Below, piece after piece: positions 733-42,511 of a stretch of DNA of 42,935 bases. The stretch lies in IMG/VR virus record IMGVR_UViG_2529292907_000021. One strand, written 5' to 3'. Every line of letters begins with the position of its first letter. The stretch's first letter is position 1. The stretch comes from a virus (taxonomy: Duplodnaviria; Heunggongvirae; Uroviricota; Caudoviricetes). The position numbers and the translations under genes are program-made. A model generated the notes under the pieces. That model searched no databases. It saw only the letters and a program-made list of their open reading frames with translations, and was not told the DNA's origin.

Positions 733-737
733 ATGGA

Positions 738-771
738 GAGCCGGATGCGCTGAAAGGTGCACGTCCGGTTC
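738..771 (+). ncRNA. Group II intron catalytic domain V hairpin
   Basis: 34-nt hairpin with AGC triad near the 5' base of the stem and a GAAA tetraloop, immediately downstream of the IEP stop codon. Confidence 0.7.
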
Positions 772-794
772 GGGGAGGAGAGGCAGGGAAATAG

Positions 795-1295
<501 letters not shown>

Positions 1296-1337
1296 GTTCA
1301 CAGATAAAACACTCTCCAGGAAACCCGGGGCGGTTCA

Positions 1338-1554
1338 CATTGGAAATTGGCGTGGTCACATTCCTGTTTCGCCCTACCCACAACCCAACGATATCAAGTT
1401 GCTCACCCTGCGCAGAGTCCAGATCGAACTTGCGAAGCATGTCAGATGTTACGCCGGAGATGTCAGTGAAAGGTCGGGTTATCAGGTCAATGTGTTGCTG
1501 GAAGAGTGGTTTAGTGACGTGATAGTTCGTTATCAGCTCAGTGTATTTACTCAT
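1338..1554 (-). pseudogene. Phage tail protein (gene following baseplate J, Mu gp48/DUF2313-like position), N-terminal ~72 codons only; truncated by the IS insertion
   Basis: ORF 1102..1554 starts MSKYTELITNYHV... directly after the baseplate J gene with a 4-nt overlap; beyond 1337 the frame runs antisense through the IS, so only the first ~72 residues are phage-derived. Confidence 0.5.
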
Positions 1555-2750
1555 GGCGTTGGCGTTATTTTGATGTTGGCAATATTGGAATGAGCAGCCT
1601 CATTAAATAAGATATCTATATTTGAAGCGGCAACTGTTGCTGCACTCTTACCGATTTTCAGCGAGTTAATATCATAATATTTACTGTCACCACCACTCAT
1701 TACACCAAGGTTGGCTGGAGAATAAATACGGCTTAACAGAACATCATCACCTATGCGCAGTGAATTTATATATTTCGAAATCTCCGCTTTCATTTCCTCG
1801 GCAACTTGTGACGTATAGCCTGGGTAAGTTGCGATGACTATTTCGATAAACGCCTCAACCACCACAGGGCGAGAAAACTTTATCGCTTTTGGCTCGCCAT
1901 ATTTACCCACAAGATTCACTGTGGTAGTGCCGAAGGTCGATGTTCCCTGGTCCTTTTTCTTAGAGATTGCCGTAGCGATAATTGTCGCATCCCCCCCATC
2001 AACAATGCAGCTGATGGAGTGTGCTGGCAGACCATTAGCATCCACGGTATCAGCGTCGTTCTCGTAAATACGTACGCGTGTTACGCCGGGAATATCCAGT
2101 AGCGTACCGTCTAACCCATCAATGGTGGTCATTGATGGTAGTGCAGTACTCCGTGATTGCCTCTGGCGCAACTGTGCGTCATTTTCACCAGGAGAGCCAA
2201 CTGTAGCCGCCAATGGATTTGTTACGGTTTTCCACCCTCTTGTCGGCGTGGCAATCTGTGTGATGGTGTTAGCCATTGCCGCGACAGGACCAGCCGTTCT
2301 ACATGTAGCGGTAACTGTGACCGTACCTGACCCAGGAATATTCACATCAACGGGCAAGTCCCATAATGCCCCATTTGCATCTCGAACTGTACCGGCAGCA
2401 ATTGGCGTTCCAATATCGCCGGAGATAATTACATCAGCGGTTGAGTTCGTCGCAATCTTGCGGGTAATTCCGTTGATTTTAACGTTGCTACCAAGCGCCC
2501 GCCCTATCCCTGTAGCGGGTGAATAGGAGTTATATACCGCAACGGCCGTGTTATTAGCATCGTGAATCCCGAGTGCATACAGCGCTACCATTTGCCCGTC
2601 CTTACTGTCCGGATCGAGATAAGAATCGCTACCGTAGATCTCCTTAAAGTATTCCGTTAGTTTGTCCAGGATAGTCTGATAATCAGGCGCACTGATCCCC
2701 TGGGCCGTTACCGTTGCCGATAACCCCAGCGTGTCGAGGTTCAAAGCCAT
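1551..2750 (-). CDS. Baseplate J-like protein
   Basis: 399-aa protein in a baseplate gene block; size, position and sequence character fit the baseplate J (Mu gp47 / P2 gpJ) family. Confidence 0.65.
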   Translation of the reverse strand: MALNLDTLGLSATVTAQGISAPDYQTILDKLTEYFKEIYGSDSYLDPDSKDGQMVALYALGIHDANNTAVAVYNSYSPATGIGRALGSNVKINGITRKIATNSTADVIISGDIGTPIAAGTVRDANGALWDLPVDVNIPGSGTVTVTATCRTAGPVAAMANTITQIATPTRGWKTVTNPLAATVGSPGENDAQLRQRQSRSTALPSMTTIDGLDGTLLDIPGVTRVRIYENDADTVDANGLPAHSISCIVDGGDATIIATAISKKKDQGTSTFGTTTVNLVGKYGEPKAIKFSRPVVVEAFIEIVIATYPGYTSQVAEEMKAEISKYINSLRIGDDVLLSRIYSPANLGVMSGGDSKYYDINSLKIGKSAATVAASNIDILFNEAAHSNIANIKITPTP

Positions 2751-3111: not shown

Positions 3112-3210
3112 CTACCACCAGCGAACCTGGCCTATGAAATAACCGAGAGCAGCCACAATAGCCACCATCCAGATCATGATGAATTTCCAGCTTGGTAATT
3201 GCTTAATCAT
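3112..3210 (-). CDS. Small hydrophobic protein, 32 aa (MIKQLPSWKFIMIWMVAIVAALGYFIGQVRWW), start chosen at internal ATG with RBS
   Basis: GGAG Shine-Dalgarno 9 nt upstream of the ATG at 3210; single predicted transmembrane helix; sits between spike and W-like genes. The longer ORF (3112..3309) would start inside a terminator hairpin, so the internal start is preferred. Confidence 0.3.
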   Translation of the reverse strand: MIKQLPSWKFIMIWMVAIVAALGYFIGQVRWW

Positions 3211-3287
3211 TAATCGCAACTCCCGTATTAGTTTGCTAAAATCAAGCACTGATTCTCCCTTGCTCTCATCAAGGTGTAGAAAGTAGA

Positions 3288-3330
3288 AAGCCCCGAAGTG
3301 CGTCAACACTCGGGGCTTTGTTTTATCCCG
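3288..3330 (+). terminator. Intrinsic terminator oriented for plus-strand transcription (antisense to the tail operon)
   Basis: Hairpin AAAGCCCCGAAGTGCGTCAACACTCGGGGCTTT followed by TTTGTTTTAT on the plus strand; on the minus strand the stem is followed by a poor T-run. Confidence 0.55.
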
Positions 3331-3393
3331 TTGATGGGAAAATATATGTACGAATCGTTATTTTGAAATTATCTCGCCAGCGGTAATGCGCTG

Positions 3394-16319: not shown

Positions 16320-17035
16320 GCGCCTATAAGGCTCTCTTACCAGCCGCGCCCTAACAGGCGCACACGATCTGACATTTGCATCCAACTTCGTTACTTACGG
16401 CCCGTAAACGGGCTGCCCGGATAGGGAATCGATAACTGCTCTCCCATTTTATCCTCTTCAAGCTGGTGCTTTATGTAATCCTGTATCTTCGCCGTGTTCT
16501 TACCCACCGTATCGACGTAGTACCCTCTGCACCAGAACTCCCTGTTCCTGTATTTGAATTTCAAATCACCAAACTGCTCGTAAAGCATCAGACTGCTTTT
16601 CCCTTTCAGATATCCCATAAAGCCGGATACGCTCATTTTGGGCGGGATCTCCACAAGCATATGGATATGATCTGCACAGCATTCAGCTTCAAGAATCCGT
16701 ACGCTTTTCCACTCGCACAGCTTTCTCAAAATACTGCCTATTGCTCTACGTTTCTCTCTGTAGAACACTTGTCTTCGGTATTTTGGCGCAAAAACTATGT
16801 GATATTTACAGTTCCATCGGGTGTGCGCTAAGCTCTTTTCGTTCCCCATTGGGACCCCCTTTTGATTTCTTGTTTGACACTTGCAGTTGCCAGACCGCAA
16901 GGTGTTTTAACAAATCAAAAGGGGTTTTAATAACTGGCTCAAAGCTGAAAGCTTTCCGGAACCCCCAGCCTAGCTGGGGGTTTTCTGTGCACAATAAAAA
17001 GGCCTGCATAAGCAGGCCTCTTTCTCAGACTAGAA
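16320..17035 (-). mobile_element. IS200 insertion sequence (IS200/IS605 family), boundaries approximate
   Basis: Contains the tnpA gene plus the characteristic left-end terminator hairpin (AGGCCTGC-TTAT-GCAGGCCT followed by TTTTTATT on the element strand) and a second hairpin (ACCCCCAGC-TAG-GCTGGGGGTT) preceding the tnpA RBS; a further hairpin lies near the right end (~16285-16315). Confidence 0.7.
16391..16849 (-). CDS. tnpA: IS200 transposase TnpA (HUH/Y1 transposase)
   Basis: Translation MGNEKSLAHTRWNCKYHIVFAPKYRR...HIHMLVEIPPKMSVS...REFWCRGYYVDTVG is the hallmark IS200 TnpA sequence; start placed at the internal ATG with AAGGGGG RBS. Confidence 0.85.
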   Translation of the reverse strand: MGNEKSLAHTRWNCKYHIVFAPKYRRQVFYREKRRAIGSILRKLCEWKSVRILEAECCADHIHMLVEIPPKMSVSGFMGYLKGKSSLMLYEQFGDLKFKYRNREFWCRGYYVDTVGKNTAKIQDYIKHQLEEDKMGEQLSIPYPGSPFTGRK

Positions 17036-21646: not shown

Positions 21647-22030
21647 ATGGAACAGAAGCCTGCTATATATATCGGACGTGCCCGCTCTGCGATTGTAGAA
21701 GACAATGATATTTACGGTTGCGAGAGGGGTATACACATAGAGGAAGCAATAACTGCATCAGTCAAACGCAACAAAATATTATCATCTGAAGCGCTTTCTC
21801 ATATCGACAAAATCAGGAGCATTCTTTTAGACAACGCTGCCACACTTGAGCGAGAAATTGGAACTGAAAACAAAGATAAGGTTCTTTCGGCGGTCAATGA
21901 ATTACCTAATAGCAGAGACTCCGAAGCTCTTGATAAGTTATTAACAATTTCAAGCCTATGTTCGAACGCAGTCACTATCTGGCCTGTTATAAAACCGATT
22001 GTTATTAGCTTAATCGGAGCTGTTGGTTAG
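21647..22030 (+). CDS. Opposite-strand moron protein, unknown function (127 aa)
   Basis: Plus-strand ORF with AAAGGAA RBS 6 nt before the ATG, visibly AT-rich, inserted between the lysis cassette and the terminase genes, both on the minus strand. Confidence 0.5.
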   Translation: MEQKPAIYIGRARSAIVEDNDIYGCERGIHIEEAITASVKRNKILSSEALSHIDKIRSILLDNAATLEREIGTENKDKVLSAVNELPNSRDSEALDKLLTISSLCSNAVTIWPVIKPIVISLIGAVG

Positions 22031-22538: not shown

Positions 22539-23080
22539 AGGCTCACACGCTCCCGTACCCAGCCATACACGAATGACTTGTTAGCCGGGCGCTGCTCTGC
22601 CAGCTCGAGATAGCGCTGCCCTTGGCTGCAATTCAGTGCACGGAGCAATACTGATTCCCCTTCGCTCCCGCGTTTAGCCAGGAACGATTTCAGGGCGCTG
22701 ATGCTACGAGGGCCAATCTGGCCGTCGGCGATTAAGTCTGGGTAAAGTTTCTGCTGGTCGTTGAAGACATTCAGCCAACGCTGGAACCATTTCACCTGCA
22801 CTGATGGCCCCATGTTCACGCCGGTGTCGCAGAGTTCAGCGGCGATGGCCGGAGACACGGTAGCTACCTGGTCGAAGCGTGGACCATACCAGTAATCAGC
22901 CTCGAGTATTTCGAGTGCCTGCTGGCGTGTCAGGTTGCGCATATCACCGGTAAAGCCATGGGCGCGTGCCGTTGCCTGAGTGATTCCCCAGTTCGTCGGG
23001 CCGCCCTTGTCGTTCGGGTGATTAACGTATCCACCCTCTTTGCCGAGGATGCGGTTGAAGATATCGTCTTTGGTCATCAT
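22535..23080 (-). CDS. Endolysin, glycoside hydrolase family 108 with C-terminal peptidoglycan-binding domain
   Basis: N-terminal motif ILGKEGGYVNHPNDKGGPTNWGIT is the GH108 signature; followed by a PG-binding-like domain; located between holin-like and spanin genes. Confidence 0.8.
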   Translation of the reverse strand: MMTKDDIFNRILGKEGGYVNHPNDKGGPTNWGITQATARAHGFTGDMRNLTRQQALEILEADYWYGPRFDQVATVSPAIAAELCDTGVNMGPSVQVKWFQRWLNVFNDQQKLYPDLIADGQIGPRSISALKSFLAKRGSEGESVLLRALNCSQGQRYLELAEQRPANKSFVYGWVRERVSL

Positions 23081-23352
23081 TCAGCCCTTACGACTTTTGC
23101 CAGATTGCCTTTGGCTCGCCACACAGCAATGCAGATAGCCAGGTTGAGGAACAACTCACCCGGGTCAACGTTGCTGTAATGGCCGAGAAGAATACGGAAA
23201 GCGGTGAAGCTTGCCGACAGGATCAGGAAGTAAGCCATCCAGGCATAACCCGGGCGGTGCCTGCGTCCTGTCTTACTGAAGAACATCAGACGAAACACGA
23301 TCGCCATGCAGATAATCGCGTTTGCATCCACGATGACGGAATGCCATGTCAT
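23077..23352 (-). CDS. Holin/antiholin-like small membrane protein
   Basis: 91-aa protein with 2-3 predicted TM helices, translationally coupled between the holin and endolysin genes. Confidence 0.45.
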   Translation of the reverse strand: MTWHSVIVDANAIICMAIVFRLMFFSKTGRRHRPGYAWMAYFLILSASFTAFRILLGHYSNVDPGELFLNLAICIAVWRAKGNLAKVVRAE

Positions 23353-23747
23353 TTCCCTTCCTCCTCCAGCCCGGGCATCTTGCCGTTGCGCGACTTGGCA
23401 ACAACTCGAAGCAGGACTGCGACGGAAACGGAAGCAGCTACAAGCGCACCAACATTCGGTGACACTTCGATACTGACCGGCGGCTGTAACAGGCCAAGGG
23501 CCGTATTAATGACCCCGGCGATAATCTTGGCCATGGGAACGGAGAAGAACACGCCCCCCATGAATGAGATGACCGCGAAGAGCATCTGCTTCCATAGTTG
23601 ATGAGGCTCTGAGGTCAGCACATACATTGCCGCCCCGGCCAGCGCACATAACATTACGCCAGGTGTCGCCTCCGGGAACATAGTGGCGAAAGTGATCCCT
23701 ACCGTAGCGGAGGTCACCCCACTGGCAATTGTGATTGGCTCAGACAT
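23349..23747 (-). CDS. Holin-like membrane protein
   Basis: 132-aa protein with multiple hydrophobic helices and a charged C-terminus; first gene of the lysis cassette. Confidence 0.5.
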   Translation of the reverse strand: MSEPITIASGVTSATVGITFATMFPEATPGVMLCALAGAAMYVLTSEPHQLWKQMLFAVISFMGGVFFSVPMAKIIAGVINTALGLLQPPVSIEVSPNVGALVAASVSVAVLLRVVAKSRNGKMPGLEEEGK

Positions 23748-24004
23748 AGTTATTCCGTGTGTAGAGGGTCAGGCTTCACGAGCAGGATTTATCAACAAAG
23801 CACGTAGTGATTGATTCCCGTGAGCCTGAAATGAAAAACCAGCGATAGACTGGTAAAATGAATGGGTAGCAATATATGAATTTATTCCGAAGATATTATC
23901 TTCGGTATAGCCTAAATTTTAAAAGTACTGGATGAGATGGTATTTAGAAAAAAATCATTTAAAATCATACACGCTGATGTTTTTATAATTTATAAGGAGA
24001 GTGT

Positions 24005-24295
24005 ATGAGTAGCATGCTTGACCCACAGCAATACAATAAAGACATGCGAGAAAAGCAAATTGACCTCATGCTTACTGCGATGGGGCCAACGAATGAGAAG
24101 TCGGCTTTTCTTATGGCTTTAATGATTAAACACTCTGATGATCCGGTAGCAACTATCAACGAGATTGGCGATTGCATCAATGCGGTCTACGCAGCTGGCG
24201 AGAACACCGACACTTCCGCGGGTTCAACGTTCAGCGAAATGAAGATCATGTACGGCAGCGCCGTGAGCATTTACCACAAAATTAAAGATATTTAG
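24005..24295 (+). CDS. Opposite-strand moron protein, unknown function (96 aa)
   Basis: Plus-strand ORF with AAGGAG RBS and a TATAAT element just upstream, followed by its own terminator; AT-rich; lies between the Q-like gene and the holin gene. Confidence 0.5.
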   Translation: MSSMLDPQQYNKDMREKQIDLMLTAMGPTNEKSAFLMALMIKHSDDPVATINEIGDCINAVYAAGENTDTSAGSTFSEMKIMYGSAVSIYHKIKDI

Positions 24296-24301
24296 CAAAG
24301 T

Positions 24302-24328
24302 AAACCCCGCATCATCGCGGGGTTTTTA
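24302..24328 (+). terminator. Intrinsic terminator of the 24005..24295 moron
   Basis: Hairpin AAACCCCGC-ATCAT-CGCGGGGTTT followed by a T-run. Confidence 0.6.
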
Positions 24329-24340
24329 AAGGTACTGTTA

Positions 24341-24372
24341 AATAAAAAGCCCAAGGCGTTCCTCGGGCTTGA
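24341..24372 (-). terminator. tR'-like intrinsic terminator on the minus strand downstream of the Q-like gene
   Basis: Minus-strand hairpin AAGCCCGAGG-AACG-CCTTGGGCTT followed by TTTTATTT, ~70 bp downstream of the Q-like stop. Confidence 0.4.
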
Positions 24373-24438
24373 AAACTTATTTACTGCCAGCGCATACAAC
24401 AATGGCACAATATCAGATTTACACGAAATATATGCTAA

Positions 24439-25128
24439 TTAGTTCATTTCTGCAATACCTTGCTGATAATTTGCTGCCTTTTGTTGTGAACGTGATCGCG
24501 AAATATGATGTAGCGACTGGGAATCGAGTCCCTTATACAGGCTGATCATCGCATCGTAATGTTCCACGTAATTCTGAGACCAGTTTGTTTTGTTAACGCC
24601 CACCAGCGTAGCGAGATCACCATAATGATACGGATCCTTCCCGGATAACTCGCCTTTCACATCCTGCGCCGCCAACCATATCAACTGCCGTAAACGGTCA
24701 ATGGTCTTCTTCGCCACCTTTTTTCCGGCCAGATGCTCGCAGAATTTCGACCACGCCCACTGAGTAATCAACACCTGATTATCCCAGCGCACATTCTCGC
24801 TGTAGTTCCATAGCAGCCAGGCCTTCTGGTGTTCTTCGAGCGTCATCAGTGCACGGCGCCACGATGAGGTGGAGTATTCCACCGGCTGCACCAGTGGAAT
24901 ATGCGCCCCCTTGGCATGCGACTGTTTGCCCGGTATTGGTGGATTATCCAACGTAATCATTTTCCCGGTTACCTCATCCATTACGCGAGGCTTCTTCCTC
25001 TTAAAGGTGCCAGTATCGAACTGCGCATTCTCCAGCCAGGCCATTAACTGCCCTTTCGTCGCACCACTTAAATCAGCGGTGGCCACCATCAGCTGCTGGC
25101 GCACGTATTCGAGAAATTGAGTATTCAT
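24439..25128 (-). CDS. Late-gene antiterminator Q-like protein
   Basis: 229-aa ORF between NinG and the lysis cassette, followed by a promoter/terminator-like region; assignment is mainly positional. Confidence 0.45.
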   Translation of the reverse strand: MNTQFLEYVRQQLMVATADLSGATKGQLMAWLENAQFDTGTFKRKKPRVMDEVTGKMITLDNPPIPGKQSHAKGAHIPLVQPVEYSTSSWRRALMTLEEHQKAWLLWNYSENVRWDNQVLITQWAWSKFCEHLAGKKVAKKTIDRLRQLIWLAAQDVKGELSGKDPYHYGDLATLVGVNKTNWSQNYVEHYDAMISLYKGLDSQSLHHISRSRSQQKAANYQQGIAEMN

Positions 25129-25262
25129 ACAGCACCGCCTATGGTTTTGATGTAGTTCTTCAGTATTCGGTAGTCCGTCAGTACAGAGCCGGGAAAGTGG
25201 TATAAGCGCAATCGTTGCCAGCGAACGCGGAGGTGATCGGCAAAGTAGGTTTCGAAAGTCAT
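25125..25262 (-). CDS. Small hypothetical nin-region protein (45 aa)
   Basis: Start ATG overlaps the NinG stop (ATGA) and the stop overlaps the Q-like start (ATGA), implying translational coupling. Confidence 0.3.
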   Translation of the reverse strand: MTFETYFADHLRVRWQRLRLYHFPGSVLTDYRILKNYIKTIGGAV

Positions 25263-25882
25263 GCAGCCTCCTGTTTCTTCAGTGCGCGTAGGTCGGCCAG
25301 CGCGGTAAGCCTGATTTCCTTCAGCTCTTCGACTGTCCAACGGTGTGGAGTGTTATCGTTCTCGAGCGCCAGCACAGGCTCTTCGCCGTAACGTTCCACC
25401 AGCGCAGCTCGGTATGCTTCAATATTCCCGGATTTGTAGACGTTGCAGACATCACACTGAAGATGGATGTTGAAGCGAGTAAAGCGCAGATGCCCAGCTG
25501 CTGCCGTAGTTCGATAATGGCCAGCATGCCAGGCGAACGCCGTTTTAGTTCCACAGGAAATGCAGCCCCGCCCCTCTGCCAACTCATTCTCGCGACAGAT
25601 GTCGTTGACGGCTCGCTGAGTCAGGTCAACCCAATGCTTCAGTGGTTTTGCAGCAGCTTTGCGCTGGCGCCAGGCAGCCCGCTCTTTCTTCTCAGTAGCA
25701 CGCTGTTTGGCAGACTCTTTGCGCTGAGCATCTTCACGGGCTTTTCTGGTCTGCTCTTTCCCGACTGCGCTGGCGCACTCATAACCGCAGACGGTCTGCG
25801 TGTCTCGCACAGGATGAAACCACTGGCGGCATTCTTTGTTGGCGCACTTACGGCGCGGTAACTTAGCCATGCTCAACCCCAC
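25259..25882 (-). CDS. NinG/Rap-like recombination-associated protein
   Basis: 207-aa protein with multiple Cys clusters (CANKECRQW...CGYEC...CISCG...CDVC) and a basic N-terminal half, in the nin region upstream of Q; resembles lambda NinG. Confidence 0.6.
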   Translation of the reverse strand: MGLSMAKLPRRKCANKECRQWFHPVRDTQTVCGYECASAVGKEQTRKAREDAQRKESAKQRATEKKERAAWRQRKAAAKPLKHWVDLTQRAVNDICRENELAEGRGCISCGTKTAFAWHAGHYRTTAAAGHLRFTRFNIHLQCDVCNVYKSGNIEAYRAALVERYGEEPVLALENDNTPHRWTVEELKEIRLTALADLRALKKQEAA

Positions 25883-27449: not shown

Positions 27450-27704
27450 CTAATATTTGTAGCGTTTTTCCGGGAGAAGAGCGTATTCGTAGGTGAAGTT
27501 GAATGCCTCGTTTTCAGTGTTAAATCGGCGTTCTGAGATATCTCTCCAGTGCCCTACCCTGAAATACTTCTGAGCAACCCACTTTCCCTCGAACGGGAAC
27601 ACAGCGTAAGCGCCCACGTACTGATGATCAGCGTGCGGGTCGGGATATGACTCCCCCTCTACCAGAGAGTAAAACTTGATGCCGCTTATAATTATGCAGC
27701 TCAA
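27450..27704 (-). CDS. Hypothetical phage protein (84 aa)
   Basis: ORF abutting the upstream gene stop; no recognisable motif. Confidence 0.35.
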   Translation of the reverse strand: MSCIIISGIKFYSLVEGESYPDPHADHQYVGAYAVFPFEGKWVAQKYFRVGHWRDISERRFNTENEAFNFTYEYALLPEKRYKY

Positions 27705-27947
27705 TTATTTTTTCTCGTTCTGCGCGGCCAGATCCAGATAGCGCGGATCGGACGCTCTTGGCAACGTCATGCTCTGCTCGCGGTAGTTGAAGTATTCACG
27801 AAGATGCTCTGGTTTCTCACGCGCTACCTGCTCATCGATAACAGGCATGTTCATGCGCTCTTTGTACGCTACGCCACTGGCAGCTAGGTCGACGTTAACC
27901 TTGTCCTGCTCTTCTTTCGATTTTGCTGCGATGTTATGACCAGACAT
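27705..27947 (-). CDS. Hypothetical phage protein (80 aa)
   Basis: ORF preceded by an inverted repeat and a TATAAT element; acidic/basic helical character. Confidence 0.35.
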
Positions 27948-28138
27948 GATGAATCCCTCTCGATGCTTTGAGAGGGATTATAGGTCAGGCTGCTATTTGT
28001 TTCGACTGACAAAATTCCGGCAATTTAGCACGTACTCAGTGCTTCAGCGACCGGCTGAGGAACTTCATCAGCTCAAGGTTGCGAAGAAGGAAACCGCCAA
28101 AGTGGAACTTCTGCTTAGAATAATTTATTGATAGAAGA

Positions 28139-42244: not shown

Positions 42245-42320
42245 ACAGGATATGGAAATTTCGAGTAATTTTCGTGGGATTTCGTGAAAGCACCGAAAAA
42301 ACCCAATGAAAACAGATAGA

Positions 42321-42424
42321 TAAAAAGAGACCGAATACGATTCCTGTATTCGGTCCAGGGAAATGGCTCTTGGGAGAGAGCCGTGCGCTAAAAGTTGGCA
42401 TTAATGCAGGCTTAGTTGCCTTGC
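42321..42424 (-). ncRNA. sdsR: SdsR (RyeB)-like Hfq-dependent small RNA, ~104 nt
   Basis: Minus-strand sequence begins GCAAGGCAACTAAGCCTGCATTAATGCC... and ends in hairpin GACCGAATACAGGAATCGTATTCGGTC plus TCTTTTT; a sigma-S-like -10 (CTATTCT) lies ~7 nt upstream of the inferred 5' end; sequence matches my recollection of SdsR but was not database-verified. Confidence 0.5.
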
Positions 42425-42511
42425 CCTTTAAGAATAGATGACGACGCCAGGTTTTCCAGTTTGCGTGCAAAATGGTCAATAAAAAGCGCGGTAGTCATCA
42501 GCTTAAATGTT

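Follow-up and report, generated by a model that had tools for sequence, protein, structure and literature searches.

A conserved 96-aa gene lies antisense between the Q and holin genes of a lambdoid prophage

The late region of the prophage

The window, meaning the whole 42,935-nt stretch of DNA that was analysed, represents a lambdoid prophage whose late genes lie on the minus strand. The genes around the interval considered here are the following:

25259-25882, minus strand: NinG; YlcG comes next in the late region, and then Q
24439-25128, minus strand: Q antiterminator of the Q82 family, 229 aa (PF06323, E = 1.8e-94, full-length coverage; phrog_304)
24005-24295, plus strand: 96-aa accessory (moron) gene encoding an acidic, predicted four-helix protein (homologs, dN/dS, AlphaFold model)
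23349-23747, minus strand: holin, the first lysis gene, 132 aa (PF16931; phrog_198)
23077-23352, minus strand: second holin of the late region (PF05449)

The two holin genes are followed by a GH108 endolysin and spanins. Pfam separates the Q families as PF06323 (Q82), PF06530 (Q21) and PF03589 (Qlambda) (PMC9388147).

Some other features of the window are recorded here. A second antisense ORF, of 127 aa (21647-22030, plus strand), is situated between the spanin genes and the small terminase, where the DNA forms an AT-rich island (37-43% GC); this is the position of lambda bor and DLP12 borD. No Pfam, PHROG or PADLOC family matches it. Of the related loci, L001 and L002 have it called as a gene and L003 does not; it is probably one more moron. 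Matches on both strands at 42318-42462 to the host sRNA pair SraC/RyeA (178 bits) and SdsR/RyeB (116 bits) indicate that the right end of the window is probably host chromosome, with the prophage boundary to the left. Inside the prophage, 16859-16982 (minus strand) is a full-length match to the Hfq-binding sRNA family STnc490 (146 bits). A group II intron catalytic domain model (RF00029, 64.9 bits) matches 736-822 (plus strand) near the left end. A homologue of DNA polymerase III theta (PF06440) lies in the early region at about 27700-27950 (minus strand), as found from L001 (9701-9943).

The 96-aa gene

A preliminary description of this DNA had placed in the Q-to-lysis interval a plus-strand ORF of 96 aa with its own promoter and terminator, and a minus-strand terminator resembling tR'. 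The ORF is present at 24005-24295, is conserved, and has a low dN/dS. A search of 5.8 billion proteins gives 22 clusters of homologs, all of 94-97 aa and 46-100% identical, drawn from Escherichia, Atlantibacter, Salmonella, Pantoea and Yersinia. Synonymous sites are close to saturated, and dN/dS between pairs is 0.05-0.12. In comparison with the 93%-identical relative L005, the frame is intact, dN is 0 and dS is 0.056. This pattern of conservation marks the ORF as a genuine gene, maintained by purifying selection. That the frame is open by chance and the interval merely a non-coding late leader is next to impossible: the lack of a Pfam, PHROG, NCBIfam or PADLOC match would fit such a frame, but the conservation pattern (22 clusters of constant length down to 46% identity, and low dN/dS at saturated synonymous sites) already refutes it, and a confident helical model and a conserved Shine-Dalgarno (SD) sequence and terminator also speak against it.

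This is a narrow family: from 1.84 billion representatives, a profile search returns four. The gene is found in none of 5,426 complete E. coli genomes and none of 50,697 phage records by megablast, blastn or tblastn, and a scan of genome contigs confirmed no relative.

The protein has a mass of 10.6 kDa and a pI of 4.7 and is non-hydrophobic; its AlphaFold (AF2) model has four helices with a pLDDT of 81. It is predicted to be an acidic cytoplasmic four-helix bundle. There is no family or fold match in Pfam, PHROGs, NCBIfam, PADLOC, PDB sequences, PDB folds or viral predicted folds, and sequence and fold searches give no similarity to any transcription factor. The homology search proposed in the preliminary description yields relatives, in 22 clusters, but no described family or fold. 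Its most likely mode of action would be to bind some other protein in a way that benefits the lysogen, with exclusion and anti-defence as examples.

Late promoter, leader RNA and tR'

The Q-proximal part of the interval holds these elements:

24427-24455, minus strand: candidate late promoter PR', placed by homology, with -35 TTGCAG at 24455-24450, a 17-nt spacer and -10 TATATT at 24432-24427
24409-24414, minus strand: -10-like element GATATT, at +10 to +15 when +1 is taken as 24423
24337-24423, minus strand: short late-leader RNA (IsrJ-like) ending in tR', from Rfam, terminator scan and fold
24370-24347 (stem) and 24346-24337 (U-run), minus strand: tR', with a 10-bp stem and a fold of -27.5 kcal/mol

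The PR' candidate overlaps the 3' end and stop codon of Q. After it the minus strand reads TGTAAATCTGATAT, followed by a small hairpin and then by tR' itself, hairpin and U-run. Beside Q in 50 complete E. coli genomes, the segment 24340-24437 recurs at 84-94% identity, whatever comes after it. PR' is placed here because of homology to the promoter and 5' end of IsrJ, an RNA which has been detected experimentally in Gifsy-1 and is reported to be about 74 nt long and transcribed in all conditions tested. The promoter hexamers, their spacing and the start region recur in front of isrJ in Gifsy-1, and also in L016 and L017, two E. coli prophages. Against the Rfam isrJ model Gifsy-1 isrJ scores 100.3 bits; in front of it stands TTGCAA-17-TATATT, spaced as in the window, and the 14-nt start is shared too. 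The window match (24423-24346) scores 27.9 bits, below the gathering score of 37. The tR' stem shows compensatory changes in Gifsy-1. We infer from these likenesses that TTGCAG-17-TATATT is a promoter active as PR'.

At 82PR', a sigma-dependent pause occurs at +25 through a -10-like element (PMC4914094). The geometry of GATATT fits that of 82PR', and it would be the expected sigma-dependent pause element for Q loading. Short PR' RNAs have been described for lambda, 21, phi80 and 82 (PMC7547250). At the level of sequence, the window has three features of a Q82-type late antitermination module: a PF06323 Q, a candidate promoter by Q with a pause-like element, and tR' downstream.

Gifsy-1 also has a Q82-type Q, but the gene upstream of its isrJ is anrP, not Q; an isrK-orf45-anrP module lies between Q and the IsrJ promoter. 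The Gifsy-1 (L018) loci compared are 2431-2505 and 3156-3354, with 24337-24455 as the window counterpart. The isrK region beside Q in Gifsy-1 matches the C4/c4-a1b1 antisense system of P1-type immI modules. IsrK was considered as the late leader of Gifsy-1 and rejected, because Rfam puts C4/c4-a1b1 (P1 immI-like) there and it is isrJ that has the PR'-like promoter. The comparison suggests that IsrJ is the PR'-tR' late-promoter leader RNA of Q82-type prophages.

The tR'-like terminator between Q and the moron is thus borne out, with a conserved stem at 24370-24347 and a T-run to 24337. A late promoter mapping elsewhere would have undone the proposed antisense arrangement; the sequence places PR' and tR' directly beside Q, by way of Gifsy-1 IsrJ homology and the 50 E. 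coli genomes. Because PR' and tR' adjoin Q, Q-modified transcription must cross the moron antisense to reach the holin. The arrangement in which the late transcript is antisense to the moron holds as far as the sequence can tell.

Terminator and Shine-Dalgarno sequence of the 96-aa gene

The moron carries these signals close to its frame:

23994-23999, plus strand: Shine-Dalgarno AAGGAG, 5 nt before the ATG; GGAG is kept there in all lineages
24302-24327, plus strand: intrinsic terminator of the moron, AAACCCCGC-ATCATC-GCGGGGTTT+TT; -16.3 kcal/mol, z = -4.1

Matches to consensus motifs are about as numerous as expected from shuffled sequence (promoters, 3 versus 3.3; terminators, 3 versus 2.3), and the case therefore rests on conservation and not on motifs. 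Conservation in other phages validates the ORF and both terminators, and dN/dS also supports the ORF. The AAGGAG signal reported earlier is present, with its GGAG conserved.

The moron terminator is a 9-bp GC stem plus T5; the consensus terminator scan missed it only because A/T flanks lengthen the stem. The stem is conserved with different loops at the E. coli, Atlantibacter and Salmonella loci. The Pantoea locus has a different GC hairpin in this position, and at the Yersinia locus the moron and tR' appear to share a single hairpin. By fold and conservation, then, the gene has its own predicted terminator, and the clean plus-strand terminator of the preliminary description recurs in other backbones. 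It is symmetric, with an A-run and a T-run: read in the late direction, the same stem is followed by UUUACUUU. The reversed terminator is predicted to be a weaker second stop in the late direction.

The holin side of the interval

Towards the holin, the interval contains the following elements:

23883-23909: near-perfect 27-nt palindrome with 13-nt arms, core CCGAAGATA-T-TATCTTCGG at 23887-23905; fold -10.7 kcal/mol
23828-23854, minus strand: second late-direction terminator-like hairpin, with stem 23854-23838 and a U-rich tail, at the holin-side edge of the slot
23765-23828, minus strand: conserved late-leader block of about 65 nt, CAGGCTCACGGG...GAAGCCTGACCCT, directly after the 23854-23838 hairpin

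The palindrome is the inverted repeat which had been noted near 23900; it is present at 23887-23905, but with a spacer of 1 nt and not 2. It is found only in this prophage lineage, with no copy outside this prophage in IMG/VR. As a repeated operator it was rejected, there being no further half-sites above chance.

A GC hairpin with a T-run and a different stem sequence is found in the same place as the second hairpin in L016, L017, HK225 and Gifsy-2. The block that follows is conserved at 85-90% identity across 28 phage records that differ in Q type and in lysis genes, including HK225, mEp237, Gifsy-2 and phages of Klebsiella, Enterobacter and Citrobacter. Its fold is a long hairpin; it matches no Rfam family, and the element is unannotated. 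Hairpin and block together lie at 1775-1882 in HK225 (L039) and at 2480-2574 in Gifsy-2 (L040); in Gifsy-2 they stand before the antisense cargo and not beside the holin. With hairpins at its edges, the cargo slot is therefore bracketed by late-direction terminators. We take the arrangement to insulate the lysis genes against transcription that starts within cargo DNA.

The gene and its terminator as a movable unit

The cassette at 23845-24339 has 40% GC, and the region upstream of the gene 35%; the window as a whole has 52% and the neighbouring genes 50-57%. The base composition of the cassette is thus unlike that of the surrounding phage genes. L016 and L017, which have the same Q82-type Q, share 24340-25200 and 23757-23844 with the window, and other minus-strand ORFs fill the slot between these shared flanks. 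Between unrelated backbones, homology covers only 24004-24327 of the window (the ORF and terminator), or from 23948 in Salmonella, and it ends exactly at the moron terminator.

A filled and an empty site can be compared directly. HK225 has in the same slot, between tR' and the hairpin and conserved block on the holin side, an antisense hypothetical gene, gp66, whose 136-aa product differs from the moron product in being an unrelated protein. It is encoded at 1258-1668 (minus strand) of L039 and has a C-terminal CxxC...CxxC motif. Atlantibacter-type phages match HK225 over gp66 (95%) and over tR'-Q (81%). In the filled site (L008), a 374-bp insert of SD, ORF and terminator replaces the 38-bp gp66 terminator of the empty site. 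The gp66 homologue of L008/L009 (5553-5963, plus strand; 96% identical) lies directly upstream of the 96-aa gene, and the two form an antisense tandem pair.

Related phages thus differ in the presence or absence of the gene, with a discrete insertion boundary. These comparisons show the ORF and its terminator to move together as a discrete unit. In about ten phage backbones examined, the gene is always in the Q-to-lysis gap and always antisense. The adjoining Q is of the Q82 type in the window and in L001-L005, of the Qlambda type (PF03589) in L006-L010, L012 and L021-L030, and of the Q21/DUF1133 type (PF06530/PF06576) in L011, L013-L015 and L034/L035. The stop codons of Q and the 96-aa gene are usually 137-185 nt apart; in L036, an ant/Rha/Arc module separates the two genes. 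In the Q21-type phage L034/L035, a 348-aa RelA/SpoT-domain protein is encoded between the 96-aa gene and the holin (1036-2082 / 1377-2423, minus strand).

We put at roughly three in four the probability that the Q-to-holin interval is a variable cargo slot of the lambdoid late operon, into which a small accessory gene, a moron, has been inserted backwards. The minus strand would then carry, in order, the Q82-type Q, PR' overlapping its end, a leader RNA of about 80 nt ending at tR', the moron terminator back to back with tR', the body of the moron in antisense, an AT-rich region with the moron promoter, the second late-direction terminator, the conserved leader block and the holin. The presence/absence polymorphism, foreign composition and purifying selection agree with the first description of this gene as a moron, an extra gene between Q and lysis.

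Promoter of the 96-aa gene

Two plus-strand elements stand close upstream of the gene:

23984-23989, plus strand: TATAAT, a perfect -10 hexamer ending 4 nt before the SD, with no -35; found in this lineage only
23937-23965, plus strand: better promoter candidate ATGGTA-17-TAAAAT, with its -10 at 23960-23965, 45 nt before the ATG

The preliminary description had taken TATAAT as the promoter. The hexamer is there, but transcription from it would start inside the SD, it has no -35, and other lineages lack it. Because it ends 4 nt before the SD and reads GCTAAT in Salmonella, it was rejected as the main promoter candidate. In each of five lineages a -10-like hexamer stands 41-47 nt upstream of the ATG; it reads TAAAAT in the window and in Salmonella, TATAAT in Pantoea, TAAAGT in Yersinia and TATATT in L030. 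ATGGTA-17-TAAAAT is accordingly placed as the preferred candidate for the moron promoter over TATAAT, and a further plus-strand candidate, ATGAAA-17-TAAAAT, lies at 23831-23859. The moron promoter candidates score 8-9 of 12, and promoter-like matches are no commoner than in shuffles.

The claim that the moron carries its own promoter is not supported for the unit shared between backbones, which is ORF and terminator without promoter. It is unlikely, all the same, that the moron lacks a working promoter here and is silent or incidentally expressed, needing an upstream co-oriented gene which is absent from this prophage. Homology to the Atlantibacter-type loci begins 1 nt before the ATG, and at those loci the 96-aa gene lies 37 nt after gp66 with no terminator between them; it probably uses the gp66 promoter there and rides on the gp66 transcript. 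The window candidates are, besides, weak or badly placed. Against a promoterless gene stand the -10-like hexamer 41-47 nt before the ATG, since the five lineages that have it lack an upstream co-oriented gene, the frame kept intact against L005 with no nonsynonymous change, and upstream DNA which is AT-rich, as is typical of sigma-70 promoters.

Other elements of this stretch were also considered. The minus-strand sequence TTTAAA-17-GATAAT (23923-23895), as a promoter driving the holin without PR', was put down to chance: the region has 32-35% GC, motif counts equal those of shuffles, and the element is lineage-specific. An 11-nt inverted repeat (23965-23975 / 23998-24008, plus strand) could pair the upstream region with the SD end and the ATG; judged by eye, it is kept in Salmonella, where a C-G pair has become A-T in a single compensatory change. 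Whether it matters depends on the transcription start site. As a device for hiding the SD and ATG it was set aside, as the left arm would be at or before the favoured start and the repeat is not evident in Pantoea and Yersinia.

Expression in the lysogen and after induction

With the gene as cargo in the slot, the following scheme can be proposed. In the lysogen, PR' would be constitutive and its transcript would stop at tR', with the reversed moron terminator and the second hairpin as back-ups. For the moron, a sigma-70 promoter within the AT-rich stretch of 160 bp would serve, most probably that with its -10 at 23960-23965, and the moron transcript would stop at 24302-24327, before tR'. After induction, Q would load at the pause element, polymerase would read through all three terminators, and the late transcript would run antisense across the moron to the lysis genes. 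This read-through should depress moron expression by collision and antisense RNA. Mutually exclusive expression in the lysogenic and lytic states, as first suggested, is plausible; promoter use, termination efficiency and mutual exclusivity are what we infer from the arrangement of these elements.

The strict position and orientation of the gene could reflect a role in late control, and not passive cargo. It is distinctly unlikely that the moron or its convergent transcription is part of late-gene control. Such control might take either of two forms: transcription from the moron promoter towards PR' might block leaky read-through into the holin in lysogens, or the 96-aa protein might modulate antitermination or lysis timing through a target common to all Q types, such as RNA polymerase. 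The same slot and antisense orientation in about ten backbones with three non-homologous Q families would be explained in this way, as would the usual 137-185 nt to the Q stop codon, and a terminator which abuts tR' and by its symmetry gives a second stop in the late direction. However, lambdoid mosaicism keeps the position even of ordinary morons (bor, nmpC, gogA, stx), the ant/Rha/Arc module of L036 parts the gene from Q, and the protein is unlike any transcription factor. Most Q82-type relatives also lack the gene: it is in 0 of the 5,426 complete E. coli genomes, 50 of which have the same PR' leader. Since these E. coli relatives keep the PR' leader without it, the 96-aa gene is dispensable for late control. 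That the strict placement is functional, with the unit serving as a safeguard of the lysogenic state or a modulator of the late switch (by convergent transcription, by added terminators that stop PR' read-through, or by a protein acting on RNA polymerase or lysis timing), is very unlikely. A small accessory gene carried backwards in the cargo slot is still the preferred reading.

Comparable loci in other prophages

An antisense accessory gene between Q and the holin is an established layout in several prophages; the 96-aa gene itself is newly found and uncharacterised. In DLP12 (quuD on the plus strand, nmpC on the minus strand, essD on the plus strand), as in the window, the accessory gene is antisense between a Q homologue and the holin. 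However, nmpC encodes a large outer-membrane porin with no sequence relation to the 96-aa helical protein. The lc porin gene of phage PA-2 presumably has the same layout as nmpC. In the Salmonella lambdoid prophages Gifsy-1 and Gifsy-2, gogA and gtgA respectively are antisense accessory genes within the Q-to-holin gap, and in Gifsy-2 both gtgA and STM1025 are antisense there. Gifsy-1 resembles the window further in its Q82-type Q and in having the same PR'/IsrJ leader. The gogA and gtgA products differ in being annotated virulence determinants of about 228 aa with no sequence similarity to the 96-aa protein, and their slot is shared with a tRNA, anrP and IsrK.

Lambda bor and DLP12 borD, like the moron of the window, are small opposite-strand genes in the late region with their own signals; bor is expressed in lysogens. 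They differ in that bor lies after Rz and not between Q and S, and encodes a lipoprotein; borD (minus strand) lies after the spanins of DLP12. Positions antisense to lytic genes have been described as characteristic of morons (10.1101/787010).

For the leader RNA, the comparable cases are IsrJ (RF01393), lambda 6S RNA and StxS, which, like 24423-24337, are short RNAs from a constitutive late promoter that end at tR'. The window leader and Gifsy-1 IsrJ have in common the promoter hexamers, an identical 14-nt 5' end and the terminator architecture, whereas the middle of the RNA differs.

The 96-aa gene adds another narrowly distributed Enterobacterales prophage accessory family to the Q-to-lysis cargo slot, which in other prophages is occupied by genes for Shiga toxin, porins and effectors. 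Nothing new is learned from the layout as such. Should the 96-aa protein turn out to serve in exclusion, anti-defence or host fitness, a small new function in lysogenic conversion would be added. Possibly more useful are IsrJ as a Q82-type late-promoter leader, and the widely conserved terminator-plus-block which borders the cargo slot.
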